Part shown: positions 6,767 to 62,687 of the stretch, one piece after another
Layout of the letters: each line of letters begins with the position of its first letter
How positions within the stretch are numbered: position 1 is the stretch's first letter
Origin: a virus
Lineage: Duplodnaviria > Caudoviricetes
Length of the DNA: 64,000 nt
Direction: 5' to 3' (one strand)
IMG/VR virus record: IMGVR_UViG_3300020577_007013
Program-made: the position numbers and the translations under genes
The notes under the pieces: generated by a model
Database searches by the model: none
Seen by the model: only the letters and a program-made list of their open reading frames with translations
Told to the model about the DNA's origin: nothing

Positions 6767-7060
6767 ATGGAACGTTACAAGAGTTTTTTCGAATCTCAAG
6801 AGCCTAAAATTGTGAAGGTAGATACTGCACAATTCAATGAGATTAAAGATGCTTTTGATGAGTCCATGAATGTTTATTCGATCAATGGAAGAGACTCATT
6901 TTATTTAGCTTTCTCTAAAGACCTTTCCCAATCCAATGTAGTTCATGTTTTCGAATATATCGAAAATCTCGGTTTTGACTATTTCAAGGAATTGACTGAA
7001 GATGAAAAAAGTGGCTTAGGAATTAAAGGTCATACAATTATTGAAGTAATTCCTAATTGA
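6767..7060 (+). CDS. Hypothetical protein, possibly late/virion-associated
   Basis: One of three real plus-strand genes; ACTAA-N5-ATG upstream; N-terminus MERYKSFFES. Confidence 0.65.
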   Translation: MERYKSFFESQEPKIVKVDTAQFNEIKDAFDESMNVYSINGRDSFYLAFSKDLSQSNVVHVFEYIENLGFDYFKELTEDEKSGLGIKGHTIIEVIPN

Positions 7061-16348: not shown

Positions 16349-16909
16349 TTATAATTTGGATTCGATGAGAGGCATCATATCATGGAATGTTCTTCCATGG
16401 CAGTTTTCTCCTATCGCTTCCATCTTCCAACCTTTAGAAGACCGTTCGAGTTTAGCCATGACCATGGCTGTGTGATCTCCTTGACAAGAGAGATCATACT
16501 TAGCAATTTCAGCATTGTTGGTTGCGTCAACCAATCTGCAGAAAGCTTTCTTCACAGAACTGAAAGTCTGACCTGTAAAGTTGTTGACGACAAAGATTAA
16601 TTTGTCAGCTTCTTCTTTAAGAGAAATCAGATCCACTGTGATGACTTCGTTGTCTCCTGATCCAGCTCCGACACGATCATCACCACTGTGCTTGATGTTT
16701 TTGTCTTTACTGACCAATTGTCTGAACCAGACTTGATCGATCAGCTTTCCTTTTTTGTTGAAGACGAGACATGAAGCATCAAGATCGACGTCTCCTCCAC
16801 TTAACCAGCCACCAGCTTTCCAGCCGAGACCCATTTTAACAGATGTGTACCCACTTCCGTCAGTTTTTTCAAGGTTGATCTTGTCACCTTTTGCGAGTGA
16901 TATGCTCAT
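16349..16909 (-). CDS. TerD-family stress protein (TerZ-like)
   Basis: MGLGW, DLDASC, VWFRQL, HSGDDRVG, DNEVI, WKMEAIGE. Confidence 0.9.
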   Translation of the reverse strand: MSISLAKGDKINLEKTDGSGYTSVKMGLGWKAGGWLSGGDVDLDASCLVFNKKGKLIDQVWFRQLVSKDKNIKHSGDDRVGAGSGDNEVITVDLISLKEEADKLIFVVNNFTGQTFSSVKKAFCRLVDATNNAEIAKYDLSCQGDHTAMVMAKLERSSKGWKMEAIGENCHGRTFHDMMPLIESKL

Positions 16910-16940
16910 TTTCTTTTCTCCTTTTCTTATTTCTTATAAG

Positions 16941-17513
16941 TCAATCTACATCGATTCCATAATTTGCGCAAAGTTTTCTTAAGCCACCTTTGACACCTTG
17001 TCCGATAGCTTTGAAGACCCATTCAGAACCGTCTCTATGAATCTCTCCGAAGATCATAGCTGACTCATTCTTAGAGTCTTCATCAAGAGTGAACTTACAA
17101 ATTTCATCTCCAGATTCTTTGTTGACGAGTCTTATGTAAGCATTCTTTACTTTGCCGAAAGTTTGCTTACGTTTGTCAGCTTCGTGAATCGTAACGACAG
17201 CTACAAGTTTTTCGACTTCTTGAGGGACTTTCTTGAGAATGACTTCAATGACTTCATCATCTTCGTCATCCCCACCACCAGTTCTGTTATCACCTGTATG
17301 GTGAACACTTTTGCAGGAACTGTCTGGATTGTTGTAGAATACAAAGTCCTTTTCACTGTTGACGATTCCTTTGGAATTCACCATGAAAAGACTTGCGTCT
17401 AGGTCGAAGTTTTCTCTTTCACCGACGTCCCAACCTAAGCAGATTTGAATCTCCTTAAGTTTGGAGTCCTTACTGAGAGAGAGTGATTTGTTTTTTGTTA
17501 GTGATACACTCAT
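16941..17513 (-). CDS. terD: TerD-family stress protein
   Basis: LGWD, FDLDAS, FVFYNN, HTGDNRTG, WVFKAIGQG; true start MSVSL at 17513 (ATGA overlap), not 17585. Confidence 0.9.
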   Translation of the reverse strand: MSVSLTKNKSLSLSKDSKLKEIQICLGWDVGERENFDLDASLFMVNSKGIVNSEKDFVFYNNPDSSCKSVHHTGDNRTGGGDDEDDEVIEVILKKVPQEVEKLVAVVTIHEADKRKQTFGKVKNAYIRLVNKESGDEICKFTLDEDSKNESAMIFGEIHRDGSEWVFKAIGQGVKGGLRKLCANYGIDVD

Positions 17514-18082
17514 GCGAGTCCTACCTGTTCGAGCATTTTTGACAATCCGCCTTTGAAGCCTTGACCAATGGCTTTGAATTTCCATTCGTCATCCTTCTTG
17601 TAAAGTTCTCCGAAGATCATTGCTGCCTCAGTAGAGGCGTCTTCAGAGAGATCGAATCGACAAATCTCTTTGTTTGATTTTTGATCTTCCACTCTTATGA
17701 AGCAAGAAGATACCATTCCGAAGTTCTGTTTTCGTTCAACAGCTTCATGAATTGTGACAAGAAATTGGATCTTGTCGATGTGAGAAGGAACTTTTGAAAG
17801 ATCCACAAGAAGAGACTCATCATCTCCGTCTCCTGCACCTGTTCGATTGTCACCTGTGTGTTTTACACTCTCACATTTGCTTTTCAGATTGTTGTAAAAT
17901 ACAAAGTCTTTGTCATCTTTGCATTTTCCATCTGAACCGAGAAGAAAAGCTGAAGCGTCAAGGTCGAAACCGTCACCGTCAGTCTTTCTTACATCCCATC
18001 CTAAGCCAACTCGAATTTTAGAAAGTCCTTTGACCTCTTTGGAAAGATTGGCATTTCCACCTTTTTGTAAATTGATACTCAT
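17510..18082 (-). CDS. terD: TerD/TerE-family stress protein
   Basis: MSINLQKGGNANLSK, GLGWD, FDLDASAF, HTGDNRTGAGDGDDE, QNFGMV, WKFKAIGQG. Confidence 0.95.
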   Translation of the reverse strand: MSINLQKGGNANLSKEVKGLSKIRVGLGWDVRKTDGDGFDLDASAFLLGSDGKCKDDKDFVFYNNLKSKCESVKHTGDNRTGAGDGDDESLLVDLSKVPSHIDKIQFLVTIHEAVERKQNFGMVSSCFIRVEDQKSNKEICRFDLSEDASTEAAMIFGELYKKDDEWKFKAIGQGFKGGLSKMLEQVGLA

Positions 18083-30921: not shown

Positions 30922-32154
30922 CTAAAAGTCGGTCAAAACTTTAGGCCTAAACACAAGGCCACTAGAGATTATCTGCCTTACGACAGAGTCATCTTTACAT
31001 TTTCTCAAGATATTCAATGCTCCGTTTATGTCAGCATTGATCGTCTTGTTCGAAGACTCATCTAAATAGAGTCCTCTTTTAATTCGTCTTCCACAAAATT
31101 GGTCTTTTTTCTCCATCGATTCCATCGACAGGCTTGAGCTTTTTGATGTATAAGACTCTTCTTGCAGTGTGACTTTAATTCCTCTTTCTTCTCCTTTATA
31201 AGTTAGGTAGGTATTCAATTTCGCATAAGGAATTTGAACGAAATTTTGATTCGTCTTTGCTCCTAAATTTACAAACTTTTTCCAACCTTGATTGTAACCG
31301 ATTATAATTTCGTCTATGCCATTTTTGACGCAGTAGTCTATGAGTGACTTTGAAAGCTTGTGGAAATAGTCTCTAAAAATGTTCTCTCTTTTATTCCAGA
31401 GTCTTCGTATTCGTTTTGATGACTTTTGATTTTTAGGAAGCTCTGATTTTGCTTTTCCAATTTTTTTATTGAAGTAACGGTTCAGGCTCTTGACCTTTCC
31501 ACCTTTGACAATATGAGCTTCATTGGTAGAAGAATTCACAGTACTGAGAAGATTTGAGATGCCGTAGTCAATAGAAAGTTTTTCAGTTCCGTCTACTTGT
31601 ATTTTTTCTTCAAGGTCTTTATAGACGACTTCTAGTGAGAAGAATTCTCCTTTGGGAACAATTCTAATTTCCACTACGTCTTTTCTTTTCATATCCATCG
31701 TAAATGGAATTTCTAGAAATTTCGAGTTGACTGAGCTTTTCAAAATTTTTGGTATTGTTAATAATACTTTTTCTCCCATAATTCTGAAATGAGCTCTAGG
31801 AAAAATTGTATTAAACAGACTCTCTTTTTCTTTGTATTTAGGAAGACTTACTTTTCCAGAGTAAGATCCTTTATTTTTAATTTTAAGAAGAGAGAAAAAA
31901 CTTTTCATATCTCTTTCGACATATTTTAAGACTTGTTGAGCTGAGTGAGATGGGAGACTTTTATAGTGTTCATTAGTTTTCAATAAATGATAGTTTTCCA
32001 CATAAGTCAAGTATTTTCCGGTATTTATGAAGTGCTGCCGGACGTTATAGAGTCCACAATTATAGAGAGCTCTTGAATTGTAGCAGAGAAATTCCAGTAC
32101 TTCAAATTCTTTTTTCGAGACTTTCTTAATTCGACAACTTAGTGTTTTGTACAC
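30922..32154 (-). mobile_element. tnpB: Solo TnpB (IS200/IS605-family RNA-guided endonuclease), no adjacent tnpA
   Basis: SRALYNCGLY, LPKYK, SIDYGISNL (RuvC-I), DYFHKLS, IGYNQGWK, QNFVQIPY, QEESYTSK, INADINGALNILRK (RuvC-III). Confidence 0.92.
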
Positions 32155-37228: not shown

Positions 37229-37627
37229 TTAGTTCAGTATGTCCAAAAGTTTCTCTCTATATCTGTTGTCTCTTTTCATGTAGAATGGACTTATCTCTAT
37301 GGCTCTGAATCCTTCAGGAAGTTCAAAGTCATACTCTACTAAGTCAAGATCTTTCTTTTTCTTGAGAATCAGTTGTATGAATTCCTCTTCCTCAATGCCT
37401 TCGTAGTTATTTGTGGAAGTGACAAGAAAAGTTGACTTATCTTCTGTAGTGAAAATGGTATTGTTTTGGTAGAAATCTCCAAATCCTATGTTCTGTCTAA
37501 ATCTCGTTGCATAGAAAAAGAGTTTAGGATTATCTCTGAATTTGAACTTAAGACATGAGCAGTCAGCAATTGATCCTTGATATCTTCTTACATCTATACA
37601 TTGAACAAATCCAGAAAGGTCACGCAT
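37229..37627 (-). CDS. Hypothetical protein with shared C-terminal helix (YREKLLDIL)
   Basis: 132-aa ORF. Confidence 0.65.
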   Translation of the reverse strand: MRDLSGFVQCIDVRRYQGSIADCSCLKFKFRDNPKLFFYATRFRQNIGFGDFYQNNTIFTTEDKSTFLVTSTNNYEGIEEEEFIQLILKKKKDLDLVEYDFELPEGFRAIEISPFYMKRDNRYREKLLDILN

Positions 37628-38081
37628 CTTTTACCAACTCCATGACTTTATGATGGTAAGAAATTGGAAGAAGCAATTTGTTGATAGGAAAAATCTGAAA
37701 TCCTTGAGACTCAATCTCCTTGTCAAGATTCTTTGCTCCTCTCATATAAGGATCTTTGATAATGGAAGCAACTTTTGTAAAGTCTGTAAAGCTGACATGA
37801 CTGGAAATAAAGATTCCTTCTTTGGTTACTCCCACTGAAGTGACTGAGATTTTGAGAGAAGATCCTAATGTGTCAAATGGTTCGCAGATCACAAGATAGT
37901 TTTTCAATTGTCTGAAGTCTGGATGATTGACAGGTTGATCTGTAAAAGAGTATCTCCCAAAATCAACTGCAAACTCCTTGAATTTATTGTCTGTTTGAAA
38001 TTCTTTGGATTGAAAATGATTCGGGAAAAAATACTTCTCCAGTACTTTTTCAAGAATGTCAAGTACTAGAGTTGGGTTCAT
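37620..38081 (-). CDS. Hypothetical protein with shared C-terminal helix (YHHKVMELV)
   Basis: 153-aa ORF. Confidence 0.65.
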   Translation of the reverse strand: MNPTLVLDILEKVLEKYFFPNHFQSKEFQTDNKFKEFAVDFGRYSFTDQPVNHPDFRQLKNYLVICEPFDTLGSSLKISVTSVGVTKEGIFISSHVSFTDFTKVASIIKDPYMRGAKNLDKEIESQGFQIFPINKLLLPISYHHKVMELVKDA

Positions 38082-38084
38082 TTG

Positions 38085-39098
38085 TTATAGTCTCTTTGTT
38101 CTTTTCTTCTTAAAACAATTTGCATTGTAAAAGTCTGTCATATTCTTTCTCATCCAAGCAGCAGGACTCTGTATTTCGTTATCTAAGACTTTCCTTAATT
38201 TAGGAATCCATCCTAGCTTAGAAAAGTCTATTCCAGAATTTAGAATCTTAGATTCCAGTCTCTTGATTTTTTCATACTTAAGTTTTTTATTCTCTTGTCT
38301 TTTATGTAGTTTTCTTCCTCTACAAGTTCCTAGTCTTTGTTTTTCTATGATCTCCTGAATATCATATTTAATTGACTTTTTTTCTTTCTCTTTTAGAAAA
38401 TTCAAGAACTTTTGAAATTCTTCATTGGGATTTTTATAAAAATTTACTCCAGCAATTCTGTAAATTATCCATCCGTCTGACTCTAACTCTAAGTCTCTTT
38501 TTTCATCATGAAGAATTTGTTTTTCCTTTAAATGCTGTTTTCCGTCCATCTCTAAGTCGATCTTAAATTCTAGAATAGCAAAGTCTAGAAAGTATCTCCC
38601 ACATCTGAATTGAAAGACATGATCTATTTTATTTTGAATAAGAAGAGACTCTAAGATTGATTCCAATCTAGACTTATTATTTATCATTTTCTTAGAATGA
38701 TACCAATTATTTCCTCTCCCTTCTCTATGAGCTTTTTTATGAGACTCTGAGAGTCTTCTTTTTGTCTCGTCACTTTTTGATAATTTTCTAGTAGGATTCT
38801 CTATCCAATTTTTTTTAAGTGACTCACTAAGCTTCTTTTTGATAAGGTCAGATTTCTCTTTTCCGTAAAATTCTTCCATAGAAAGTCCTTTTCTGGACTT
38901 AATCTGAATTCCGAGTCTTTCAAAATATTCTTTTTTTCTCCTTTTAGGAAATTTTCCTTTACAAGACTTTGAATGTATTGCCCTATTATGCTTTATCAGA
39001 AAATTACATTTCAGACATTTCCAATCTTCTGTGTAGAGATGTCTGTATTCGTCTTGTCTTTTTTCTCTTAGTTGTGTCCTTTTATTTCCAGATTGCAT
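38085..39098 (-). CDS. Free-standing homing-type endonuclease (DUF559/Vsr-like nuclease with NUMOD3-like repeats)
   Basis: CLKC..H...C finger, ETKRRLSESHK, YFLDFA..IDLEMDGKQH, DEKRD..L..DGWIIYRI. Confidence 0.8.
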   Translation of the reverse strand: MQSGNKRTQLREKRQDEYRHLYTEDWKCLKCNFLIKHNRAIHSKSCKGKFPKRRKKEYFERLGIQIKSRKGLSMEEFYGKEKSDLIKKKLSESLKKNWIENPTRKLSKSDETKRRLSESHKKAHREGRGNNWYHSKKMINNKSRLESILESLLIQNKIDHVFQFRCGRYFLDFAILEFKIDLEMDGKQHLKEKQILHDEKRDLELESDGWIIYRIAGVNFYKNPNEEFQKFLNFLKEKEKKSIKYDIQEIIEKQRLGTCRGRKLHKRQENKKLKYEKIKRLESKILNSGIDFSKLGWIPKLRKVLDNEIQSPAAWMRKNMTDFYNANCFKKKRTKRL

Positions 39099-39610: not shown

Positions 39611-40339
39611 TCATCCGAAGATGAACTTCATTATGTCATTTCCAATTGTAGATCTTTCAACCTCAACTGAATTTGCTTCCTCTCTCGCAACCTTGACAGC
39701 TTTAGAAAGCTTGTCAATTTTATTTAAGAGGTCATTCTTTCTGTCCTGAGTTGTCGTACCAGAAAAACGAATTGTTGTGAACTGACCGACCACTTCGTCT
39801 CTGTAGAGAATTTCTGATTGTTCAGGATGTTTGTCAGTAGCTTTAGCTTTTGTAAAACTGAAAGGTTGCTTTAACGTTCTGTTTGTGCTTCTACCTTCAG
39901 TTTTGAAAAGACCACCGTCTCCTAAAGTCCATTTTTCAGCAGGATCTTGAACTGGGAATTTGTCGACAAAGGTCTTCAGATCTACCAACTGCTTCTCTAA
40001 GAAGATCAGATGAGTTGCAGGAACATCAGAAGCAATTACAGTACCGTCTACTGTAATGTTAGCTTTCGCTTTACAGTTTCCGTTATCGAGAGTTGCGACA
40101 ATGTTGATCAGATCGACAGTAGAGTCGTATGCATCTTTAATAGATTGCTCTACTGTGTACTGAACGATCTTAGACTCCGGTGGAAGAGTATCTTTCGAGT
40201 CGTCTGCTAAGGGCTTGTAAGTCTTATTGAATCCTTCGAAAAGATCTGATTTTTGGAGTTTGTGATACACCTCAGAGATCTTCGAAGTTCTTCTTGATTT
40301 TTCACCATTTGCAATGGCGATTACTTGTGTTAATTTCAT
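39611..40339 (-). CDS. Conserved hypothetical protein (recalled as DUF7873-like), upstream of the ncRNA
   Basis: KLTQVIA, KTYKP, LPPESKIVQ, VPATHLIFLEKQL, ATDKHPEQ, FSG, AVKVAREEANS; family name from memory. Confidence 0.8.
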   Translation of the reverse strand: MKLTQVIAIANGEKSRRTSKISEVYHKLQKSDLFEGFNKTYKPLADDSKDTLPPESKIVQYTVEQSIKDAYDSTVDLINIVATLDNGNCKAKANITVDGTVIASDVPATHLIFLEKQLVDLKTFVDKFPVQDPAEKWTLGDGGLFKTEGRSTNRTLKQPFSFTKAKATDKHPEQSEILYRDEVVGQFTTIRFSGTTTQDRKNDLLNKIDKLSKAVKVAREEANSVEVERSTIGNDIMKFIFG

Positions 40340-40361: not shown

Positions 40362-40574
40362 TCAGATCTCTGAAACTATTTGTCGAATTTTCTCTTTATA
40401 GAGAACTTCGGTGCTCGTCTCTTCCTTAGTTCTGACTATGGTGACTTTAGGCCATTCATAAGAGAGGCTTCCTCTATTGATACTAGAGGCTCCGATTCTG
40501 ACTATTTTCAATACGTTTTCAGGCATTATCTGAAAGTTAGATTTAATGAATTCTTCTGAGAACATATTCCTCAT
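40362..40574 (-). CDS. Small protein, C-terminal helix family
   Basis: Ends YKEKIRQIVSEI. Confidence 0.65.
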   Translation of the reverse strand: MRNMFSEEFIKSNFQIMPENVLKIVRIGASSINRGSLSYEWPKVTIVRTKEETSTEVLYKEKIRQIVSEI

Positions 40575-40711
40575 TTCTCGTCGACTATCTTTTTGATTTT
40601 CTCTTTAAAATCATTTTCTACTTTGCTAGGTTTTTTCTCTTTAGGATCCAGACTATCATTGTCATTAGCCTTAATCCATTTCATAAAGTCTACGAATGTG
40701 TTAAGCCTCAT
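40571..40711 (-). CDS. Small protein, C-terminal helix family (not in ORF track)
   Basis: MRLNTFVDFMKWIKANDNDSLDPKEKKPSKVENDFKEKIKKIVDEK; overlaps both neighbours. Confidence 0.6.
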   Translation of the reverse strand: MRLNTFVDFMKWIKANDNDSLDPKEKKPSKVENDFKEKIKKIVDEK

Positions 40712-40949
40712 TCAAAATTTCTTTGACCTTTTCTTTATAAGTGGATTCTACTGCAGAGACCGAAACCGGAGAAGAATAGACTCTGTCAATGAAGTATATC
40801 GCATCGTCAGGAGCTACCATCGGCCATTCAGTAATCAATGACTTAGCTACTAAATGAGTAGAATAGATTCTACCATTTTTATTTGATTTCTTCAAGAATC
40901 TCCTTGAGTTTGTCACAGTAAACTTTCTTATGAGCTTCTCTTGTGTCAT
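40701..40949 (-). CDS. Small protein, C-terminal helix family
   Basis: Ends YKEKVKEILNEA; start may lie further downstream. Confidence 0.6.
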   Translation of the reverse strand: MTQEKLIRKFTVTNSRRFLKKSNKNGRIYSTHLVAKSLITEWPMVAPDDAIYFIDRVYSSPVSVSAVESTYKEKVKEILNEA

Positions 40950-41082
40950 TTGTAAGAGTGACTTCAGCCATAGTAGTATAAGAGTATCCTATACTATTGA
41001 CTTTTCCCATCTTGACACCTCCGTAGAACATTTCAAATTGTCCTGAACTCAGGTCTAGAAATCCGTGAGAACTACTTGACAA
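40879..41082 (-). CDS. Small protein, C-terminal helix family
   Basis: Ends YCDKLKEILEEIK. Confidence 0.6.
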   Translation of the reverse strand: MSSSSHGFLDLSSGQFEMFYGGVKMGKVNSIGYSYTTMAEVTLTNDTREAHKKVYCDKLKEILEEIK

Positions 41083-41284
41083 TGTCTTCTACCTTCTTTA
41101 CATATTCTTTTTCAAGTTCGGTTTTTTCTTTGATCTCACCTTGAACCCATTCCATAGTATATAGCTCCATGGCTTTCTGAACATGTGGATTATTGAAATA
41201 TAAATATTGGCTCTCTAAAAGTTCAGCGGCTTTTCTAGCTTTACTGTCATCTAGGAAATATTTCTTGATCTTGTCAATCCACAT
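41072..41284 (-). CDS. Small protein, C-terminal helix family
   Basis: Ends YVKKVEDIVK. Confidence 0.65.
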   Translation of the reverse strand: MWIDKIKKYFLDDSKARKAAELLESQYLYFNNPHVQKAMELYTMEWVQGEIKEKTELEKEYVKKVEDIVK

Positions 41285-41522
41285 CTTCGATAATTTTCTC
41301 TATTTCATCCTTGTAGTTAGTTTTCATTTTTGGATCTAACTTAACTCTTGGTTGTGGATATTGTCTCATGAATCCTGTGCAATCTATCCAGTCATCGAAG
41401 ATAAGTTGCATCTCAGATCTAGTGACTCCACCAAAGTCCATGCTATTATTGATCGAGACTATTCCACCGATCTTTCGACCATTCTGATCGAACACTCCTC
41501 CATCTCTGAGTTCAATTATCAT
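41274..41522 (-). CDS. Small protein, C-terminal helix family
   Basis: Ends YKDEIEKIIEDVD. Confidence 0.65.
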   Translation of the reverse strand: MIIELRDGGVFDQNGRKIGGIVSINNSMDFGGVTRSEMQLIFDDWIDCTGFMRQYPQPRVKLDPKMKTNYKDEIEKIIEDVD

Positions 41523-41685
41523 CTAACATGTCCAAAAGCTTTTGCTTCTGTTCTTCTTCTTGAAGTTTTCTATTGAGTCGCTTTAGATTTTTGACTTCAT
41601 CCATTTGATGAATCAGCTCATTGACCTTTTCTAAATAGTCGGAGTCGCCTTCATTGTCAGACTTTGAGAATTTACTTGTCCTCAT
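41512..41685 (-). CDS. Small protein with internal helix motif (not in ORF track)
   Basis: MRTSKFSKSDNEGDSDYLEKVNELIHQMDEVKNLKRLNRKLQEEEQKQKLLDMLDDN. Confidence 0.55.
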   Translation of the reverse strand: MRTSKFSKSDNEGDSDYLEKVNELIHQMDEVKNLKRLNRKLQEEEQKQKLLDMLDDN

Positions 41686-42163
41686 AGGTCTCTTCTGTGT
41701 CGATTTTTAGTTCAGTCATTCCACTAGGCTTTCCATCTAACATCATTGTTGGAGGACTTATAAAAGGTAGCTGAGTTATTGGAAGATAAGGTGCATGAAT
41801 GTAGCCTTCAGTTAATTCAGAAAGTTCCATGACTTCAGGCTCTTTCTTTTTATTCTTGAAATTTGACATAAGAGCTTTGACATCCAGCTCTCCGTCTTTA
41901 TTGAAAATTTCTTTCTTTTTGTATTCTCTCTTAAAGAGATCTTTGAATTTTTCCCAAAGAGACTTTTTACGTGGAGAGTAATGCTTAAGTTTTCCGTACA
42001 TTCTGAAGAAGTCATCAGTCATTAATTCTTCATGAGTCTTCTCTTTTCTTTTCCAGAGTTTTTTCTGGAGTTTTTTCCAAAAAGACTTAGGCTTAGGTTC
42101 TACATACTGAAGACCAGGTTCTCCTAAATCTATGTAAGCTTTTATTTTCGAAATTTCAGACAC
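41672..42163 (-). CDS. Hypothetical protein with GYIHAPYLP motif
   Basis: 163-aa ORF; repeated KSFWKKL/KSLWEKF. Confidence 0.65.
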   Translation of the reverse strand: MSEISKIKAYIDLGEPGLQYVEPKPKSFWKKLQKKLWKRKEKTHEELMTDDFFRMYGKLKHYSPRKKSLWEKFKDLFKREYKKKEIFNKDGELDVKALMSNFKNKKKEPEVMELSELTEGYIHAPYLPITQLPFISPPTMMLDGKPSGMTELKIDTEETYEDK

Positions 42164-42396
42164 TAAAAAAGATCCTTGATTTTTTGCTTGTACGAAGTCA
42201 ACAATTCAGTTGGATTATAATAGAGAGGCATTGATAGATTTTTAAGCCACTCAATTACTCTCTTGTCTCTTTCTCTTTGTCTAAGCTTATGTTCTTCAGC
42301 TATAGCATTTACGAGCATAAGCTCTATGTCTCCTATCTTAGAGAATGGACTTGAGTCTACCAACATAGTCATCCTTAACTTTACTTTTTCTTTCAT
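42163..42396 (-). CDS. Small protein, C-terminal helix family
   Basis: Ends YKQKIKDLF. Confidence 0.6.
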   Translation of the reverse strand: MKEKVKLRMTMLVDSSPFSKIGDIELMLVNAIAEEHKLRQRERDKRVIEWLKNLSMPLYYNPTELLTSYKQKIKDLF

Positions 42397-42545
42397 CTTC
42401 TACTACAGTTACAAAGCCATAGCCGATAGGGTCTTCATCAAAGAAATTCTTAGGAACTCCGGTAACTTTTGCTACCAGGTCGTAGAGTTCTCTGATCTTC
42501 TCATCTGTAAGTGATTCGTCTTTATTCAAATGATTGACCTGAAAG
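42338..42545 (-). CDS. Small protein, C-terminal helix family (start uncertain)
   Basis: Ends YVGRLKSIL; the ORF-track 5' extension overlaps the vWA gene. Confidence 0.5.
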
Positions 42546-43935
42546 CTAACTTCGCTTGTGAAAGATCTTCGATATTTCCTGTATCCATGAAAGACAAAGA
42601 CTCTGAAAGTTTGTTGCAATTTTCAATGTTACCCATATCTTCCAAGAATACGAAGTGGAATTTCTTTCCTTGTACTCTATGCTTAATAAGTTCATTCATG
42701 GTAGGGATTCTGATATCCTCTGTACCGTCTGTTACCATAATGATGTCCGACTTATCAAGACCGTCTACTTCATTCTTGTCAATGTCCTTCACAGCATAAG
42801 TGAGAGCCATGTCCATGTCAGTACCACCATCTGGATGTGTATTGAGAATGAAGTCAAGAAATGTATTCCAATGAGCTCTTCCTTTTAGAACGAACAAGCT
42901 TCCTAAACGTCCTTCAAACCATCTGCAATAGAATGTCGTTCCGTCTTTCATGGCTTTCTTCGCTAAAGCGATTGCCACTGCTTTAATGAACATTTGACGA
43001 TTGTTTTCATGAGTGGATCCTGAACGATCTAACAAAGCATAGAGACATTGTTTAAGATCTTTTCTCTCTTTGTATTTCATGACTCTCAATGATTTGGTCA
43101 TGATCTTACGGTCAAGAACATCATCAATTGTAACTTCGAACTTGACTGCCTTGCTTACATCGTTCATTTTCTTCATCTTAGAATAGTGAAGATTGGAAGA
43201 AATGTTTTCAGTCTCGTAGAGTTTTCCTCTCTTCGATTGACTGAAGAATGATGTCTCCAGATTTTTAGCGATCTCAAAAATGGAAGCATTTTCATTAGAG
43301 AGAAGTTGCTGAACCATTTGCTTGATCTTGAGCTTCTTGTCCAAGATCTCTTTATAGGTCCTATCAAAGTGACCCATATCTTTTGTTGAACCTGTATTTT
43401 CGGTTTTACCGTCATCTTCAGGAACATCGTATGAGTAGTTCATTATGTGCTCGAATAAGAATCCGAATGAAGAGAAGATCTTGGATACATTTTGTCCAGT
43501 TGATCCTCCACCCATACCACCGTTAGGCTGACGACCAGCTTTTTGATTTTCAATGATAGCTGAGAAGATCTGACAAACGAAGTCAAATTTCTCCTCTAAA
43601 GATAGAGACTTGGATTCAATGTACTGCTCAACAATATCAGACTCAGCAAAATGAATAATGTCCATTTTGAGTTTGAACATCTGAGCTTCAGTGTGCTCAA
43701 TATTATTGACTTCACCTTTTTTGTATCTGTCGATCGCATTTCTTGAAATCTCCAGATCTGATGACATATACTTGAAACAATTTGTCTTCCCTTGAGCTAT
43801 GAGACAAAGTGTATCTTCAAGAACCTCTTTTGGAAGTGCTGAAAGAGAAGGGTACTTAGCGTACCCCTTGTTCACCATGTCGGTATAGAATGTAGGGAGA
43901 TCTATCTTTATGAATCTCATTTTACTTCTTATCAT
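42526..43935 (-). CDS. vWA domain protein, ViaA-like
   Basis: LLDRSGST, GGTDMDMAL, DIIMVTDG; directly downstream of a MoxR ATPase. Confidence 0.85.
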   Translation of the reverse strand: MIRSKMRFIKIDLPTFYTDMVNKGYAKYPSLSALPKEVLEDTLCLIAQGKTNCFKYMSSDLEISRNAIDRYKKGEVNNIEHTEAQMFKLKMDIIHFAESDIVEQYIESKSLSLEEKFDFVCQIFSAIIENQKAGRQPNGGMGGGSTGQNVSKIFSSFGFLFEHIMNYSYDVPEDDGKTENTGSTKDMGHFDRTYKEILDKKLKIKQMVQQLLSNENASIFEIAKNLETSFFSQSKRGKLYETENISSNLHYSKMKKMNDVSKAVKFEVTIDDVLDRKIMTKSLRVMKYKERKDLKQCLYALLDRSGSTHENNRQMFIKAVAIALAKKAMKDGTTFYCRWFEGRLGSLFVLKGRAHWNTFLDFILNTHPDGGTDMDMALTYAVKDIDKNEVDGLDKSDIIMVTDGTEDIRIPTMNELIKHRVQGKKFHFVFLEDMGNIENCNKLSESLSFMDTGNIEDLSQAKLAFRSII

Positions 43936-45094
43936 CCATTGGGAAGATCTCGTCTTCTGAAAGTCCAGATTGTGAGACCTTATCTTCGATCAATTTCTTA
44001 AGATCTTTTGCTTTCTCAAGAACTGATTTTTGGCAATTAGCTTGAGTCCATTCAGAGATTTTATCTTTGATATGTGAAGCGAGAGCTGCAAGCATTCTTG
44101 TTCTCTCAAGCTTATCATCATATTTGAGAATCTTAGTGTGAAGAGCTTTCTCAAATTTCATGAGCTCCATTCCCATTGCCATTGATTTTTCTGATTTGTC
44201 AAAGACAGCATCGAATTTGTCTGAGTTCTTGATGTCTCCACCATTCACAAGTGCATATTTAATGCTCTTGAGATTCTCAACTTCAATTGTCTCTTGACCT
44301 TTGAGGAATGCATCAGCTTTAGCGACAAGCAACATTTTATTTTTCTTTCTCGGACTGATACCGATACTTGTCTGCTGTGTGTACTCATCAAGAATTGCAT
44401 CGAACATGATGAGAAGCATATCAGAGAATTGAGGCTTGTATTTCTCAAATTCTTCGTGAAGAATCTTCAGATCATGGAAAGCAAATTTCGGATATTCTTC
44501 GTCAGAGATTCCTCTTAAGAAGTTGGAGAACATTTTGATTCTGCTTTCTTGTTTTACCAAGTCAGCAACTTCAGATGTGAAGAGAATACGATCATAAACA
44601 GCTCGAAGTTCTTTCTCCTCCTCTCTCTCTTGATTCGTTGTCATGATAGCTGTGAGTAGCTTTGCTGGAATTGTTCTGCTCTGTCTCGTAGATGATCTCT
44701 CGTTCAAGATCTCATTTGCAGAAACGAGAAGCTCTTCAGAAGCATTAAAGAATTCGTCCAATCTCGCAAAGTCTGTTGTGAGAAGTGAACCTTCAATGTT
44801 ATGAACGATGTTACCTTTCTTGAATTCCTCAATTGACTGAGGACCCATGATGTATTGGTCGTCCATGAATCTTGTGAACTGTTGTTCAAAGACTGTAGCT
44901 CCTGTAAAGCCTTTAAGAATCTTCTGACTTAGAAGTGTCTTCGCTGTACCTGGAAGTCCTTTTAGAAGCACATGCTCCTTAATGAGAATTGCCAATTTTA
45001 TTTGGTTTGTCTCATACTCTCTTTCAGAGAAAAAGTCCTCCATCTTTTTGAAATAATCTTGATAGTCTTGTTTAAGTTTTTTTACTTCCTTCAC
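43922..45094 (-). CDS. MoxR/RavA-family AAA+ ATPase
   Basis: EHVLLKGLPGTAKT, LDEFFNA, NEILNER, AVYDRI, ISPRK. Confidence 0.9.
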   Translation of the reverse strand: MKEVKKLKQDYQDYFKKMEDFFSEREYETNQIKLAILIKEHVLLKGLPGTAKTLLSQKILKGFTGATVFEQQFTRFMDDQYIMGPQSIEEFKKGNIVHNIEGSLLTTDFARLDEFFNASEELLVSANEILNERSSTRQSRTIPAKLLTAIMTTNQEREEEKELRAVYDRILFTSEVADLVKQESRIKMFSNFLRGISDEEYPKFAFHDLKILHEEFEKYKPQFSDMLLIMFDAILDEYTQQTSIGISPRKKNKMLLVAKADAFLKGQETIEVENLKSIKYALVNGGDIKNSDKFDAVFDKSEKSMAMGMELMKFEKALHTKILKYDDKLERTRMLAALASHIKDKISEWTQANCQKSVLEKAKDLKKLIEDKVSQSGLSEDEIFPMDDKK

Positions 45095-46578: not shown

Positions 46579-46945
46579 AACGTTCCTTCATAAAGTTCGA
46601 CCATAGACTTATCATATTGTCTCTTCCGTTAATGTTTGATGAATGGACTGTGAATCGTTCTACTTTACTGAGATCAATTTTTCCGTCAAGATCCATTTCG
46701 ACGAGTTTATTTAGGAAGTCTTTTCCTGTCTTCGACTCAAGTCCTAGGTCATGGTCAAGAGTCATCATTCTAGGAACTCCTAATTTAAGAATGAGCTCTA
46801 TAGCTTCATCATAAGTTCTAGCAATTTTCCAATTCCACTCTTCTCTCTTATACTTCTTCTGTCCTTTACAAGACAGTTCAGAAATAGCATTGGGAAATAT
46901 GTAATCGAGTTCCCTAATGTCGTCTAGGAAAAGATCATAGAGCAT
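46559..46945 (-). CDS. Cyclic-phosphate-processing receiver-like domain protein
   Basis: LFLDDIR, TLDHDLG, TGKDF, VHSSNING. Confidence 0.8.
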   Translation of the reverse strand: MLYDLFLDDIRELDYIFPNAISELSCKGQKKYKREEWNWKIARTYDEAIELILKLGVPRMMTLDHDLGLESKTGKDFLNKLVEMDLDGKIDLSKVERFTVHSSNINGRDNMISLWSNFMKERYGSVFI

Positions 46946-48110
46946 GATTTGATATATTAAAGATTTCCTTAAGCTCTTTCAAAAACTTAGGATCTTTACA
47001 GAACTCTTTAGAAGGTTCATCAGATATCTTAGCGACAGGTTGTCCATTAATTTCTGACAACTTGATTACCATTTGAGGATTCTTTTTTCCGATATTGCAA
47101 GTCAGATGAGTACCTATTCCGAAGACGATTTTGATTTGACCATGAAATTTTTCATAGATCTCTGATGCTTTCTCAAATGTAATTGAGTCACTGAAGATTG
47201 CAGTTTTTGTCATTGGATCAATTTTCGATTTTTTGAGTTCCTGAATTAGAAAATCACACCATTCAATAGGATCACCGCTATCATGTCTGAATCCTGAAAA
47301 ATCAAGCAGTTGGGTTGAGAATTCTATCAATTGTCTAGAATTTATCGTGTCGGTCAAGGCTATATGATATTGTTCAGGATAGACTGAACTCCACATAGAG
47401 AAAGCTTCGTCTTGGAAGTATTGAATTGGATTCTGTCTTAAAACCTGAAATGCTTGGATGTACTCATGGGCCATAGTTCCAACTGCTCTAAGAGAAAATT
47501 TCTTAGCAAAGAAAACATTGCTCGTTCCAGTAAAATTCTCTGGACAATTTGTGAGAATCGCTCTTAAGATTGCTTCATGATGCCTAAATGATGCTCGTCT
47601 TCTAGTTCCGTAGTCTGAAAATTTAATTTCCTTAGCTTCCTTCTTTATGAAGGAAAGACCGTCCACTGTCTTATGGCAGAGTTCCAGTTCTTCTACCATG
47701 CTGAGACCGAACTCTCTTTCGAAATAGACTTCATTAAGGATGGATAGAATCGGTATCTCGAAGTAGGTGATCTCTTTCCAATTTCCTGAAATTTTGATTT
47801 GAAGCTTCCCATCCTGTTCATAGACATTTACATTTGATCTCTTCAACTTCAGAGTGGAGAGAAACTTAAGATAGTCTCTACTGAAGAGTCTAAAGGAATC
47901 CAAGTATTCGATGTCTTCTTTTGTGAAAGTGAGAGTACAAAGATGGTTAATTTCTTTTTCAATATCGTCTTTCCATTCTAGAAGATCGACTTCTGAACGA
48001 CAGATTAATTCGAAAGAAGCTGAGATATTCTCCCCTTTGAATCTCTCGAAGACGCAATTCCCCATTGTAAATTTGTAGAGATCCGTATCAAGTAGACTAT
48101 TGATGACCAT
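46935..48110 (-). CDS. pncB: Nicotinate phosphoribosyltransferase
   Basis: SLLDTDLYKFTM, DYGTRRR, GTSNV, GTMAHE, RHDSGDP, FSDS, FGIGT, AKISD. Confidence 0.95.
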   Translation of the reverse strand: MVINSLLDTDLYKFTMGNCVFERFKGENISASFELICRSEVDLLEWKDDIEKEINHLCTLTFTKEDIEYLDSFRLFSRDYLKFLSTLKLKRSNVNVYEQDGKLQIKISGNWKEITYFEIPILSILNEVYFEREFGLSMVEELELCHKTVDGLSFIKKEAKEIKFSDYGTRRRASFRHHEAILRAILTNCPENFTGTSNVFFAKKFSLRAVGTMAHEYIQAFQVLRQNPIQYFQDEAFSMWSSVYPEQYHIALTDTINSRQLIEFSTQLLDFSGFRHDSGDPIEWCDFLIQELKKSKIDPMTKTAIFSDSITFEKASEIYEKFHGQIKIVFGIGTHLTCNIGKKNPQMVIKLSEINGQPVAKISDEPSKEFCKDPKFLKELKEIFNISNHAL

Positions 48111-48297
48111 AAATTTGCTCCGACATTTCAAGTAAAGTCTTGAGTTGTTCTTTACCGATATAGACTGAGTCTACGTGAGAAACTTCTCCTTCATGGTTCA
48201 ATTGCTCTCGACTTAAAGAGATTGTTCCACTCTCTAAGAATTCCACTTCTACTTCGTTTTCTAACTCTAAAGTGGCTAGAACCTTCTGACCATGATA
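48097..48297 (-). CDS. Small hypothetical protein
   Basis: Probable start MYHG after GAGGGA. Confidence 0.45.
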   Translation of the reverse strand, partial: YHGQKVLATLELENEVEVEFLESGTISLSREQLNHEGEVSHVDSVYIGKEQLKTLLEMSEQIYGHQ

Positions 48298-50151: not shown

Positions 50152-50628
50152 TTATTCTCGAAAAATCGTAATAAATGGCTTTTCCTTGAATTGCTCTAGT
50201 GATGCTTTGATCTTTTCTTGATCGTCATCGAAAGGGAGTAGAAAAAGTTCTAGAAATTTAGAGATGAATGGAGAAAATCTCCCTTTCATTTCATAATGGT
50301 AAAGCTCTAAATCTATTGTTTGGAGAATGTCAGTATGTTTTTCGACTTCCGAATTGAAGTCTTTGTAGTAATACTTTGTCATGTCGACTTCTTCATAAGT
50401 TGCATCATCATAGACTTTAGTGATTTTGAAGAGATGGATCATAGACCCTTCCTCTCTCAATCTGTCAATGACTTTGGAATATTTCCTAGTGAAAAGAAGC
50501 TTTTCAGATTCAAAACATTTCATGAATTCCATCGGAGAAGGCGGCTCTCCTTTTTGCATTTTTTCAAAGAGATCATACATTCTCTTTTTGATGATTCCGT
50601 TCAGTCTATAGCCGATGCAAATTCTCAT
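50152..50628 (-). CDS. Hypothetical protein
   Basis: 158-aa ORF, AGGAG SD. Confidence 0.65.
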   Translation of the reverse strand: MRICIGYRLNGIIKKRMYDLFEKMQKGEPPSPMEFMKCFESEKLLFTRKYSKVIDRLREEGSMIHLFKITKVYDDATYEEVDMTKYYYKDFNSEVEKHTDILQTIDLELYHYEMKGRFSPFISKFLELFLLPFDDDQEKIKASLEQFKEKPFITIFRE

Positions 50629-59067: not shown

Positions 59068-60921
59068 TTACTTTATTGATAGCCATTCTTTTCTATCATC
59101 AGCTCTTTTCTTATTGAAAGCGAGATCCACCATTTCTGAGCAATTTTTGTCAGGAACAAATTGTACGAGATGATTCGTTTCCATATTCTTAAAATAGATA
59201 TCGAAGTCTTCTGGAGTCGATGTTCCCAAACCTTTATAGTGCTTGATCGTGAATTTCAGATCTTGATTTTCTTTATTCCATTTTTGATAATCCTTCTCTG
59301 TAAAGAAACAGAGTGTCTCATCTTTGAGAAAGACTTTCACATAAGGAGTTACAAATCTGTACATGATTCCTAAGTCAAAGAGTTCAGGCCAGAAAGTATA
59401 GAACATATTTATGAGCTGTCCAGTTATCGAGAATCCGTCAAGGTCATTGTCGGTAAGAATTATAATCTTCCCATATCGAATTTGACTGACAGACTCAATT
59501 TTATCTCCGACTTGAAGTCCGATAATTGACATGAGATTTTTGAATTCTTCATTCTCTTTTAGGTCTGCAACTGAAGCTCCTCTAACATTGATCGGTTTTC
59601 CTCTCAACGGAAAGACGGCCATTGTTTTAGGATCTCTCACATCTTTCGGATTTCCTGCTGCTGAGTCTCCTTCAACCAAGAAGAGCATACATTCAGCTCT
59701 ATTTTCTGAAGTAGCGTCGCTAAGTTTTACAATCTTCTTGAGATTTTTCTTATCGACTTCCTTACCCATCTTACGAAGTTCTTTTTGAGCGGCTGCAGCT
59801 TCCTTAGCTGCTATCCAATCTAAGATTTCCTGGATGATTTCACTTTTTATGACCTTTTTAATAAATTTTTCAGAAACAGAATATTCAGATCCGAATGAAC
59901 TCTTCTCGGTTATTAAGTATTCCTTAGTCTGAGAAGCATATTTTGGATTTATGATAGTGCAATCTAAGAAAAGTAGAAAGTGATTTTTTATGTCAGAAGG
60001 TTTGACTTCAGTCTTATGTTTTTTCTCTATATAGTCTCTGACTCCGCTAATAATTTGATTCATCACATAGTCAATGTGTGTACCATCTTTAGTTATTGCT
60101 GAATTTACGAAGCTGACATTCTCAAAGCCGTTTTCAGAAACAGTAACCCCTATTTTCCAATTACCCTCTTCCTCATAGATGCATTCTGATTTATATAAAG
60201 AGACATAGTCTTCAAAATCTTTGAGTTTTATTGTGTCTCCATTTAGCTTTACTTTTAAATGGGTGTTCGTTCCAGCTATGTCCACCACTCTTTTGTACAA
60301 TACAAGCCTTGTATCCTCATCAAGCTTTGTTTTGAGTCTGTCATAATCAGGAAGGTAGCTTATTTTAGTATAATTTTTGTCTGAATCTGTAATCTTCGGA
60401 GTCGACTTCTCTGAAAGATTATTAGAGAATGTCTGTCTAAATTTTTTCTCTCCATCACATGTTTCTACTATGAATTCTTTTGAAAAAACATTTGTAAGAG
60501 TTGCTCCTAAACCATGAGTTCCTACAGTTGTTCGTTGTTCGTCATCATTAAAGTTTGATCCGGCTTTTGTCTCACTAAAAATCATTTCAGGAACGTATTG
60601 ATTATGTTCTTTATGAATGACGACAGGAATTCCACCGTTATCCCAAACAGAAATCCAACCGTCGTCACCAATTTCCACCTTAATTTCATCCAGATTTTTA
60701 TTTCTCTTAGACTCATCAACTGAGTTGGAGATAATCTCATCGAATAATTTTAAAAAAGCTGGAGAGTATGTCACATTCTTTTTTTCCATCTTATTCAAGG
60801 ACGGATTATAAATCCAAGTCAAGTCAGTGTGAGCTTCAGTATTTCCAATATACATTCCAGATCTTTTTAAAATATGATCTATATCGGAAAGCTTTTGATA
60901 TTTTTGCTCAATTGTTTTCAT
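59068..60921 (-). CDS. Type IIA DNA topoisomerase, ATPase/TOPRIM subunit (T4 gp39+60 / GyrB-like)
   Basis: HILKRSGMYIG, EIISNSVD, DNGGIP, GTHGLG, EGDSA, PLRGK, DNDLDG, YKGLGT. Confidence 0.95.
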   Translation of the reverse strand: MKTIEQKYQKLSDIDHILKRSGMYIGNTEAHTDLTWIYNPSLNKMEKKNVTYSPAFLKLFDEIISNSVDESKRNKNLDEIKVEIGDDGWISVWDNGGIPVVIHKEHNQYVPEMIFSETKAGSNFNDDEQRTTVGTHGLGATLTNVFSKEFIVETCDGEKKFRQTFSNNLSEKSTPKITDSDKNYTKISYLPDYDRLKTKLDEDTRLVLYKRVVDIAGTNTHLKVKLNGDTIKLKDFEDYVSLYKSECIYEEEGNWKIGVTVSENGFENVSFVNSAITKDGTHIDYVMNQIISGVRDYIEKKHKTEVKPSDIKNHFLLFLDCTIINPKYASQTKEYLITEKSSFGSEYSVSEKFIKKVIKSEIIQEILDWIAAKEAAAAQKELRKMGKEVDKKNLKKIVKLSDATSENRAECMLFLVEGDSAAGNPKDVRDPKTMAVFPLRGKPINVRGASVADLKENEEFKNLMSIIGLQVGDKIESVSQIRYGKIIILTDNDLDGFSITGQLINMFYTFWPELFDLGIMYRFVTPYVKVFLKDETLCFFTEKDYQKWNKENQDLKFTIKHYKGLGTSTPEDFDIYFKNMETNHLVQFVPDKNCSEMVDLAFNKKRADDRKEWLSIK

Positions 60922-62149
60922 TGTTCTTGATACCGTCTTCTATTTGAAAATATTTTCTCAGATATTGAGTATAATATTCAAAGTAGAACCCCTCGTAGTT
61001 TTCTTTTGTAATCTCCATAATTCCATTTTTCGAAAAGAATTTGATTATCTTCAAGCAATTCTTATCGAAAGCGTCTGTTGAGCTTATCCTAAGAACTTTA
61101 TATCCGTTCTTTTTAGCTATTTTAAATTTCTCTTTTTCTGAAGGATTTGGATTTTTTGGATCATGCCAGTAGATCCCGTCATATTCGATAATTAATTTTT
61201 TCTCTTCTATTGAGAAATCGTATCTATAAAAATCTTTTTCCTTTCCACCGAAGAGTCTTAGTTCTTTTAATCCCATTGCTCCGAAGTTAATTGTATAGTT
61301 TTCCTTAAGACATTCATAGAGAAATATAAAATATTTAAGAGACTCTTTGGAGGCTTGTCCTTTCCAAAGTCTCATAAGAGACTTATAGTTTCTGATTAGC
61401 TCATCATAATTTTTCGAGACTTCAAAAGCTTTTGTAAGACAATAAAGCCTAAAGACTGTGTAATGTTTTCTTCTTTTGGATCTTTTTCCTATATAAAGAG
61501 AGACTCCCTTTTCGTACCCATACTTGTTAATTTGAAACTTTAGACCTATGGTCGATTGCCTTTCTCTTAATTTTTCTTTCGCTTCTTCTTGAGAGAATCC
61601 TTTTTTAAGCCAATATCCTATTTGAGTTGCAGTCCTATCTTTCCTAGTATTATCGACTCTCTTAGAGAGCTCTGACTGAAATTGAGATCTTAATTTAATT
61701 GAGTCTTCTTCTGAGTGTCCTCTAACTATCCAGTATTCTACATTCAATTTTTTACAAGACCTAGCTTTGAATAAGGCTTCCTCTTGTGTGTAATTGATCC
61801 CTGTCAAAGGATTTATTTTAGCTAGCCAATTGTCTTCTCCGAAAGGAGAATTACGTAAGTAAGAGTCACAATGTTCTTTGGATTTTTTAGAAGCTTGTTC
61901 CTCACCCCAACCTCTAAGTGTCCAATACTTTATTGAATTTTGACTTCTAGATTTTCCAGCTGTACCGATTTTTTCCCTAATCAATTTTGTTAATTGACCG
62001 AATCGAAGTCTAGGATTTGCTTTACAGCAAGTTAAAGAGAAGTCCAAGAGTGACTCTCTCAATTTAGGTTCTAAGTTTTTTATTTTGTAGTCTAAGTATT
62101 CTAGAAGTTCTCTTTCTGAACGGTCTATGACTTTTCCTTTTAAATTCAT
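60908..62149 (-). CDS. Free-standing homing-type endonuclease (repeated YW..[RK]G motifs + Vsr-like nuclease)
   Basis: YWTLRGW, YWIVRGH, YWLKKGF repeats; YDF..IIEYDGIYWH, GYKVLRI. Confidence 0.75.
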   Translation of the reverse strand: MNLKGKVIDRSERELLEYLDYKIKNLEPKLRESLLDFSLTCCKANPRLRFGQLTKLIREKIGTAGKSRSQNSIKYWTLRGWGEEQASKKSKEHCDSYLRNSPFGEDNWLAKINPLTGINYTQEEALFKARSCKKLNVEYWIVRGHSEEDSIKLRSQFQSELSKRVDNTRKDRTATQIGYWLKKGFSQEEAKEKLRERQSTIGLKFQINKYGYEKGVSLYIGKRSKRRKHYTVFRLYCLTKAFEVSKNYDELIRNYKSLMRLWKGQASKESLKYFIFLYECLKENYTINFGAMGLKELRLFGGKEKDFYRYDFSIEEKKLIIEYDGIYWHDPKNPNPSEKEKFKIAKKNGYKVLRISSTDAFDKNCLKIIKFFSKNGIMEITKENYEGFYFEYYTQYLRKYFQIEDGIKNNENN

Positions 62150-62204: not shown

Positions 62205-62687
62205 TCAGTTCCCCATTTGCTTTTTTAATTTTGAAATTGCTTCGTTCACTTTCTCCATGCTCAGTCCTCTGAACCATCCACCTTCAACATGAACGAAGTT
62301 AGAATCTGGAATAATTCCTTCGACATTTCTTTTATCATCATCGAGAACAAGGTACGGTGGATCTATGTCATATTTTTCGAGGAATTTTTTGATCTCCTTT
62401 CCTCTTGTAGAGAAAGGAATAGTGGGAGTGGAGTAGTAGCTCATTCCTTCTTTATGAAAAGTATATCGACCGAAGATCTTTCTAATTTCTTTAAGAGTAT
62501 AATCTGATTTCCAACAGCGACATGTCATCACAATATCACAAGGAACTTGAGTTAGTAGTTCGTTAAAACTGTCCGCTGACTCTTTATGGAATTTTACGAA
62601 TTCCCATGTGGTATCTTTCCAAGAGTCTTGAGATTTTTGTGTATTTAAGACACCGTCTATGTCTAGAAAAAGTATAGGATATTGCAT
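62205..62687 (-). CDS. HAD-superfamily phosphatase (RNA-repair 'Swiss army knife' type)
   Basis: LFLDIDGVLN, RGKEI, YLVLDDD. Confidence 0.85.
   Translation of the reverse strand: MQYPILFLDIDGVLNTQKSQDSWKDTTWEFVKFHKESADSFNELLTQVPCDIVMTCRCWKSDYTLKEIRKIFGRYTFHKEGMSYYSTPTIPFSTRGKEIKKFLEKYDIDPPYLVLDDDKRNVEGIIPDSNFVHVEGGWFRGLSMEKVNEAISKLKKQMGN

Follow-up and report, generated by a model that had tools for sequence, protein, structure and literature searches.

Small tandem genes of an uncultured T4-related phage appear to carry excerpts of its own capsid and portal proteins joined to a shared C-terminal tail

Results

An array of ten overlapping mini-genes

We analyzed a 64,000-nt stretch of viral DNA (hereafter the window; IMG/VR record IMGVR_UViG_3300020577_007013, Caudoviricetes) from a 254-kb uncultured T4-related phage (contig 253,865 nt). 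At positions 40362–42529, this window holds an array of ten small minus-strand genes (hereafter mini-genes), whose open reading frames (ORFs) overlap, either start on stop or over a few codons. An initial annotation made from the letters alone had proposed that small tagged ORFs between 40701 and 42545 resemble fragments of T4-type capsid and portal proteins. The gene run reads MoxR, vWA, the ten mini-genes and, as its last member, a DUF7873 gene. The stop codon of the vWA gene overlaps the start codon of the first mini-gene in the tetranucleotide TTGA, and the ten mini-genes are translationally coupled behind the MoxR-vWA pair. Almost every gene of the window lies on the minus strand, and the window includes replication and early genes (topoisomerase II subunits, a DnaB-type helicase, primase, clamp loader, NAPRTase and TnpB); the array sits in an accessory, probably early, operon.

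The members of the run are listed in transcription order. Mini-gene product lengths are based on orthologues and on the genes called in an identical public contig; MCP stands for major capsid protein, and dN/dS (the ratio of non-synonymous to synonymous substitution rates) refers to the strain comparison described below.

43922–45094, minus strand: MoxR-type AAA+ ATPase, upstream in the gene run (Pfam bpMoxR E 2.8e-26, AAA_5 E 2.4e-15)
42526–43935, minus strand: vWA-domain protein with an intact MIDAS motif (DRSGS...GGT...TDG)
42338–42529, minus strand: mini-gene 1, 63 aa, tail YVGRLKSIL, weak portal resemblance, dN/dS 0.22
42163–42366, minus strand: mini-gene 2, 67 aa, tail YKQKIKDLF, copy of the MCP spine helix, dN/dS 0.22
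41672–42163, minus strand: mini-gene 3, 163 aa, lysine-rich, without the canonical tail, 74% identity, dN/dS 0.13
41512–41685, minus strand: mini-gene 4, 57 aa, parent not found, dN/dS 0.06
41274–41522, minus strand: mini-gene 5, 82 aa, tail YKDEIEKIIEDVD, parent not established, dN/dS 0.22
41072–41284, minus strand: mini-gene 6, 70 aa, tail YVKKVEDIVK, copy of the portal N-terminal helices, missing in strain B
40879–41082, minus strand: mini-gene 7, at most 67 aa, tail YCDKLKEILEEIK, copy of an MCP P-domain strand and helix, dN/dS 0.46
40701–40895, minus strand: mini-gene 8, 64 aa from a TTG start (the longest ORF starts at 40949), tail YKEKVKEILNEA, copy of part of the MCP
40571–40711, minus strand: mini-gene 9, 46 aa, tail FKEKIKKIVDEK, parent not found, 76% identity between strains A and C
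40362–40574, minus strand: mini-gene 10, 70 aa, tail YKEKIRQIVSEI, copy of part of the MCP, just outside the range covered by the initial annotation
39611–40339, minus strand: DUF7873 protein closing the run (Pfam PF25283 E 1e-82)

Parent proteins of the lineage

The MCP and portal protein of the lineage were read from syntenic contigs of a related strain group (strain B), 11–22 kb past the window edge, which were reached by following public contigs linked to the window through identical proteins. The MCP is a 496-aa protein (P0001), encoded behind a protease-like gene and scaffold-sized genes and identical in five samples. Its structure model (pLDDT 89) matched the phage P1 head protein (E 1e-21), that of the Staphylococcus jumbo phage S6 and T4 gp23 (E ~1e-12) in Foldseek, confirming at the level of predicted structure that P0001 is an MCP with the HK97 fold. 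The portal candidate, a 646-aa protein, reached only a sub-threshold score for Pfam Portal_T4 (E 7e-4). However, all 30 of its 30 ESM Atlas clusters were Portal_T4, its homologues carry PF07230, and its model matched T4 gp20 (E 2e-12), which confirms a portal at the fold level. Neither the MCP nor the portal of this lineage could be aligned to its T4 counterpart by BLASTP.

Capsid and portal excerpts

We compared the mini-proteins with these parents through Smith-Waterman alignment (z against shuffles), BLASTP, and hidden Markov model (HMM) profiles of the MCP family (63 members, 21–55% identical to P0001) and the portal family (116 members). In calibration, E < 0.02 was reached by 5 of 2030 shuffles for the MCP profile (0.25%) and by 0.4% of shuffles for the portal profile. 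Local homology to the MCP family profile was found for four mini-genes, and held in all three strains for each of them. ORF 40362 (nt 40440–40574) corresponds to MCP residues 70–114 (z 20, HMM E 1e-12 to 1e-14), ORF 40701 (nt 40743–40871) to residues 95–137 (TEWP.V.PDDAIYF.DR.Y; residues 105–137 in the comparison with P0001; z 15–17, BLASTP E 6e-13, HMM E 5e-8), ORF 42163 (nt 42241–42339) to the spine helix at residues 297–326 (z 7.9–9, HMM E 1e-3 to 8e-3), and ORF 40879 (nt 40954–41001) to residues 278–293 (GYSYT.MAE; z 5.1–5.2, HMM E 4e-3 to 1e-2). Local homology to the portal family was found for ORF 41072 (nt 41123–41278; NPHVQKAMELYTME region), which matched the N-terminal helices at portal residues 54–111 (z 7.0, BLASTP E 1e-4, HMM E 7e-5), and, more weakly, for ORF 42338 around TGVPKNFFDEDPIGYG (nt 42416–42496; TGVPKNFFD), which matched residues 355–388 (HMM E 0.006–0.015, BLASTP E 0.024).

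In the MCP model, the overlapping tiles 70–114 and 95–137 span the N-arm helices and the first strands after them, residues 278–293 form a P-domain strand and a short helix, and residues 297–326 form the long spine helix. ORF 40362 covers the strongest conservation peak of the MCP family (residues 83–107; 96th percentile) and ORF 40879 the third. The mini-proteins fall well short of a complete HK97 fold (46–163 aa, of which 15–45 residues align to the MCP) and of a complete portal fold, from which only residues 54–111 (ORF 41072) and ~355–388 (ORF 42338) are represented. Judging from these alignments, at least five and probably six of the mini-genes encode 15–55-residue excerpts of the phage's own MCP or portal. 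Their products have the make-up of microProteins, i.e., small proteins that derive from an interaction-competent part of a larger protein, the rest of which is absent.

No match to any of the ten ORFs was found in Pfam or PHROGs, and Pfam yielded none at E < 1, ankyrin repeats included. For ORFs 41672, 41512, 41274 and 40571, no parent was found in the window and ~45 kb of further syntenic DNA (hhalign E 0.07–0.4). ORF 41274 gave a hint towards portal residues 351–381 (hhalign E 0.09), and ORF 41512 reached HMM E values of 0.07–0.5 only. Within the ~100 kb examined, parents were found among head proteins only.

The observation of the initial annotation is thereby partly confirmed: the resemblance to proteins of the phage's own lineage is real, while that to T4 is at chance. 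All of the strings it quoted are present in the minus-strand ORFs to which they were assigned. Smith-Waterman scores against T4 gp23, gp20, gp19 and gp24 (NC_000866) equaled those of shuffled ORFs, so that a "T4-type" resemblance as worded is not measurable; the best T4 score was z 2.4 for ORF 40701 against gp23, compared to z 3.1 for the control uvsW. The capsid-like character suggested for ORF 40701 and ORF 42163 holds in comparison with the phage's own MCP and not with T4, and for the latter ORF excludes the KLRMT part, which overlaps the previous gene and is probably untranslated. The portal motif of ORF 41072 was borne out by the comparison with the phage's own portal; for that of ORF 42338, there was the weak match to the own portal (E 0.006–0.024), and T4 gp20 scored at chance. 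Three further proposals were not supported. ARKAAELLESQ in ORF 41072 scored poorly as a capsid N-terminus (z ~3, HMM E 0.08), as did GYIHAPYLPI in ORF 41672 as a gp23-type motif (z -1.3 against the own MCP, p 0.055 against T4). The GxKxGxVxSI tail-tube motif supposedly shared by ORFs 40879 and 41274 gave z 1.5, with 25 of 300 shuffles scoring equally, and z 1.8 and 0.7 against T4 gp19, the tube protein used here in place of the phage's own. Overall, significant profile matches were obtained for the MCP and portal families of the lineage, and no significant alignment to gp23, gp20 or the tube protein of T4. The proposed mimicry of structural proteins is supported in the sense that several of these microproteins are excerpts of the MCP and portal of this phage lineage, are kept by selection and bear a common tail. 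The initial annotation further proposed that such mimics may titrate immune sensors, deliver them through the tail for inactivation, or interfere with competing phages.

Two simple origins were considered and rejected. A degraded second MCP gene is ruled out because the tiles overlap, are non-collinear, and each have a separate start and tail. That the cassettes are silent donors in gene conversion of the MCP gene is ruled out by the low nucleotide identity to the parent (44–67%) and the scrambled codons.

Among the controls, a single protein matched the MCP profile, namely a 158-aa protein at 50152–50628 (minus strand; E 0.005, positions 238–273). This match could be due to chance or represent a further capsid-like excerpt.

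A shared C-terminal tail

Eight of the ten mini-genes end in a common C-terminal tail, Y-K-x-K-[IV]-K-x-I-[LV]-x-E or a close variant, and the typical layout is an excerpt, a short linker, and this common amphipathic helix at the C-terminus. Across 112 minus-strand genes, the tail motif occurred 11 times C-terminally versus 4 times internally, i.e., a ~50-fold enrichment per position. The tail DNA also encodes the ribosome-binding site and start codon of the next gene. A mere ribosome-binding-site footprint can nevertheless be ruled out, both since the tyrosine and the hydrophobic positions are maintained by differing codons, and since ORF 40362 retains the tail with no coupled gene downstream.

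Tail-like ends were also seen outside the array, in two proteins of 132 and 153 aa (37229–37627 and 37620–38081, minus strand; YREKLLDILN and YHHKVMELVKDA) located downstream of a DUF559/MTES_1575 endonuclease-like gene, so the tail is not restricted to the array. Separately, several proteins start with M-x-(x)-Y-K-S/K-x-F-x-E, one in the window (6767–7060, plus strand) and others on related contigs (L012 8264–8575; L026 248–931, 933–1355 and 10433–11248). These starts share Y-K-x-K-hydrophobic-x-E with the C-terminal tail; some of the proteins lie in the head module, and they recall the T4 capsid-targeting sequence (CTS).

Selection and recombination across strains

Besides the strain of the window (A), the array is found in two further strain groups, B and C. 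In strain B, identity is 99% across the initial 1.4 kb and 90% across the remainder, while strain C has 74% nucleotide identity overall and preserves all ten genes and their order. When strains A and C were compared, the mini-genes displayed dN/dS ratios of 0.06–0.46 where these could be estimated, with dS ranging from 0.5 to saturated. Amino acid identity was 44–84% for the mini-genes versus 99% for the adjacent vWA protein, for which dN/dS was 0.01 and dS 0.73. These substitution patterns indicate that the ten mini-genes are real genes kept by selection, and the mini-genes evolve far faster than the vWA gene, as is typical of conflict genes.

Where an excerpt and its parent share an identical residue, the same codon is used in only ~44% of cases, and nucleotide identity is 44–67%. 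Since identical residues are mostly encoded by different codons, selection acts on the protein rather than on the DNA. The near-invariant MCP residues E76, P87, R95, G97, R103, E109, D117, G282, L305, E312 and D318 are kept in the excerpts of all three strains.

Strain B lacks the 41072 cassette, with breakpoints located in register within the tails of ORFs 41274 and 41072. Such in-register, tail-to-tail breakpoints indicate that the tail DNA serves as a recombination joint too. Another cassette-type swap was seen elsewhere, where a 79-aa gene of strain B (L006 18002–18241) replaces a 160-aa HAD-family gene of the window (62205–62687).

Searches beyond these strains returned little. The array region had no blastn match in INPHARED, the vWA protein had none in IMG/VR and JGI metagenome contigs, and tblastn with the MoxR protein returned distant phages only. 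A search for homologues of ORF 40362 returned three close variants only, and no short protein sharing words with MCP residues 60–140 scored. In five IMG/VR relatives whose MCPs are 32–43% identical, no mini-genes were found, the secondary matches to the MCP profile being confined to the insertion domain in large proteins.

Genes around the array

A NAPRTase-family gene (46935–48131, minus strand; E 2.5e-60) lies 3 kb upstream within the same run of minus-strand genes. Counter-defence is a known role of NAD-salvage genes in phages, and such a gene would suit an anti-defence neighborhood. The window further holds two DUF559/MTES_1575 endonuclease-fold genes (38085–39098 and 60908–62149, minus strand), a shorter variant of which sits beside the array in strain B (contig L017 571–1455). 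A TnpB/IS605 OrfB-type gene with OrfB_IS605 and Cas12f1-like TNB domains is found at 30922–32154 (minus strand), and three neighboring paralogous genes at 16349–18082 (minus strand) encode proteins of 186, 214 and 190 aa with 34–52% mutual identity. On a related contig (L032 909–3507), RecA is split over two genes, the second with an intein-like part.

Discussion

Comparison with known systems

A literature search turned up no paper on phage genes built in this way. The closest published idea concerns Bodo saltans virus, whose ankyrin-repeat proteins carry fragments of essential genes and for which a decoy role against host antiviral factors was proposed (Deeg et al. 2018, PMC5871332). As in that case, the phage studied here is a large virus with many small accessory genes, in which a constant module is joined to part of one of its own essential proteins. 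However, Bodo saltans virus is a eukaryotic giant virus using an ankyrin-repeat module and fragments of catalytic domains, whereas here the module is a 12-residue helix and the fragments come from virion proteins. In terms of mechanism, the closest parallel would be inhibition by dominant-negative fragments and microProteins, which are short excerpts reproducing native contacts and titrating partners (Savinov et al. 2022, PMC9245647; FragFold, PMC10769210). Those cases are laboratory libraries or eukaryotic regulators, in contrast to natural, selected phage genes with a shared tail.

Gol, the peptide read by the Lit defence, is a short linear segment of a T4-type MCP, lies in its conserved first quarter and is biologically active by itself. 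ORF 40362 covers MCP residues 70–114 with the family conservation peak, and its alignment to T4 gp23 is not significant. Unlike Gol, which is part of gp23 and activates the defence, the mini-genes are separate genes without significant similarity to T4 gp23. The tail itself is comparable to the T4 CTS on IPI-III and Alt, in that one short peptide tag is found on many otherwise unrelated small phage proteins. In T4, the CTS is an N-terminal tag of ~10 residues that the prohead protease removes by cleavage at L/I-x-E, and the tagged proteins are packaged in the head. The tag of the array, by contrast, lies at the exact C-terminus. Finally, the PeSL cassettes of T4-type hyperplastic regions, reportedly described by Arbiol and colleagues in 2010, are said to be repeated joints between small early genes that mediate modular shuffling. 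The array shares such repeated joints and modular shuffling; however, a PeSL is an intergenic early promoter plus stem-loop, whereas the joint here is coding and consists of the tail and the next start. Given that the mini-genes overlap, the array has no intergenic spacers that could hold a PeSL, and promoter-like and terminator-like sites within it were at chance level.

Decoys of virion-sensing immunity as the leading reading

As the leading, though still tentative, reading, we propose that the mini-proteins are decoys of host defences that sense capsid or portal proteins. Specifically, they would be free-standing molecular mimics, i.e., baits, occupying whatever recognizes the copied MCP and portal epitopes. 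The likeliest targets would be host pattern-recognition defences such as Lit (through Gol), CapRel (through the P-domain sheet and spine helix) and Avs (through the MCP and portal core folds). Synthesized ahead of the late proteins or together with them, the mimics would rival the genuine MCP and portal in binding these sensors, yet would lack the full activating surface. The shared tail would act as a common handle providing stability, oligomerization or docking to one putative phage-encoded partner.

The copied elements coincide with published sensor targets in a suggestive way: Lit senses Gol, a 29-residue peptide located where T4 gp23 is most conserved, within its first quarter (PMC3014915), CapRel touches the P-domain beta-sheet and the spine helix (PMC9712102), and the MCP-sensing Avs7, Avs8 and Avs10 recognize conserved core folds (PMC13581612). 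The contrast between an invariant MCP and vWA protein and quickly changing or dispensable mini-genes favors a variable external partner, and the nearby bpMoxR/vWA and NAPRTase genes were counted in favor of the decoy reading as well.

Several observations weigh against it. Excerpts this short and linear may fail to recreate the folded surfaces that CapRel and Avs read, and a Gol-like peptide would be expected to activate, rather than block, a Lit-type system unless suitably diverged. The excerpt in ORF 40701 is a poorly conserved, lineage-specific stretch of the MCP (7th percentile), so it would mimic the MCP of this phage in particular and not a general pattern. No parent protein was found for four of the ten mini-genes, and the MCP and portal used for the comparisons come from strain-B contigs rather than from the window's own contig.

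A bolder version, which we regard as speculative, is an "epitope decoy library", in which tagged peptide copies of the phage's most-sensed virion proteins, the MCP and portal, would competitively blind several host pattern-recognition defences at once, the tail would plug these baits into one phage machine, possibly MoxR-vWA, and cassettes would be exchangeable by recombination. Co-folding of the vWA protein with ORF 40362 and Mg gave a score of 0.00 and is evidence neither way.

Alternative explanations

The excerpts could instead be dominant-negative or regulatory fragments binding unassembled MCP or portal, so as to delay premature assembly of the phage's own heads or poison those of co-infecting relatives. 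We consider this doubtful. Protein fragments commonly inhibit their parent by titrating native contacts, with inhibition across tiled, overlapping fragments peaking at interfaces and folding contacts (PMC9245647; PMC10769210). In the structure models, the copied N-arm and first E-loop strand, spine helix, and portal helices are assembly and folding elements, and the closest match of the excerpts is to the phage's own MCP, the lineage-specific stretch of ORF 40701 included. However, the MCP is invariant in five samples and the vWA protein 99% identical, whereas the mini-genes diverge fast and one is dispensable, a pattern that fits a variable outside partner better; self-poisoning would also need to be avoided. 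A further alternative is that the mini-proteins are client-specific adaptors or regulators of the upstream MoxR-vWA remodelling machine, in which case the tail would bind either the MIDAS site of the vWA protein or the ATPase, and the excerpt would select MCP, portal or a sensor. A role in virion morphogenesis is known for the MoxR-vWA pair of Acidianus two-tailed virus, and this unlikely scenario would further agree with the mini-genes' place in the same coupled run, where the vWA stop overlaps the first mini-gene start, with the intact MIDAS motif, and with the acidic residue found 2–4 positions from the end of most tails, although the tail of the first mini-gene has none.

It is rather improbable, to a similar or slightly greater degree, that cassette shuffling through the tails left the array as a by-product of little or no use, with pieces of highly expressed late genes captured between tail repeats and serving no mimic function. 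Tails behaving as recombination joints, the tail-to-tail loss of the 41072 cassette in strain B and the four cassettes without a recognizable parent all point in that direction. They are set against dN/dS ratios of 0.06–0.46 at saturated synonymous sites, the retention of ten out of ten genes in order in strain C, the conservation of MCP-invariant residues despite codon turnover, and the restriction of parents in the ~100 kb examined to head proteins. The least probable of the alternatives, in our view very unlikely, is that ORFs 40362 and 40701 are Gol-like peptides binding host EF-Tu, either to tune translation or to pre-empt Lit- or Avs7-type defences. The T4 Gol peptide, from the most conserved, first-quarter part of gp23, binds EF-Tu domains II–III (PMC3014915), Avs7 incorporates EF-Tu (PMC13581612), and ORF 40362 spans the family conservation peak; the correspondence to Gol is nonetheless one of position and conservation, with sequence similarity to T4 not significant, and the spine-helix and portal tiles would be left unexplained.

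Implications

Bacterial immunity reads the conserved core of virion proteins, i.e., targets that a phage cannot easily mutate. If the decoy reading is true, the array would represent a new counter-strategy, in which a phage mimics the trigger rather than changing it or attacking the effector. If the excerpts act on assembly instead, they would be the first natural phage microProteins tiling a capsid protein. Either way, each mini-gene would flag a functional MCP or portal epitope, and the shared tail a putative hub protein.

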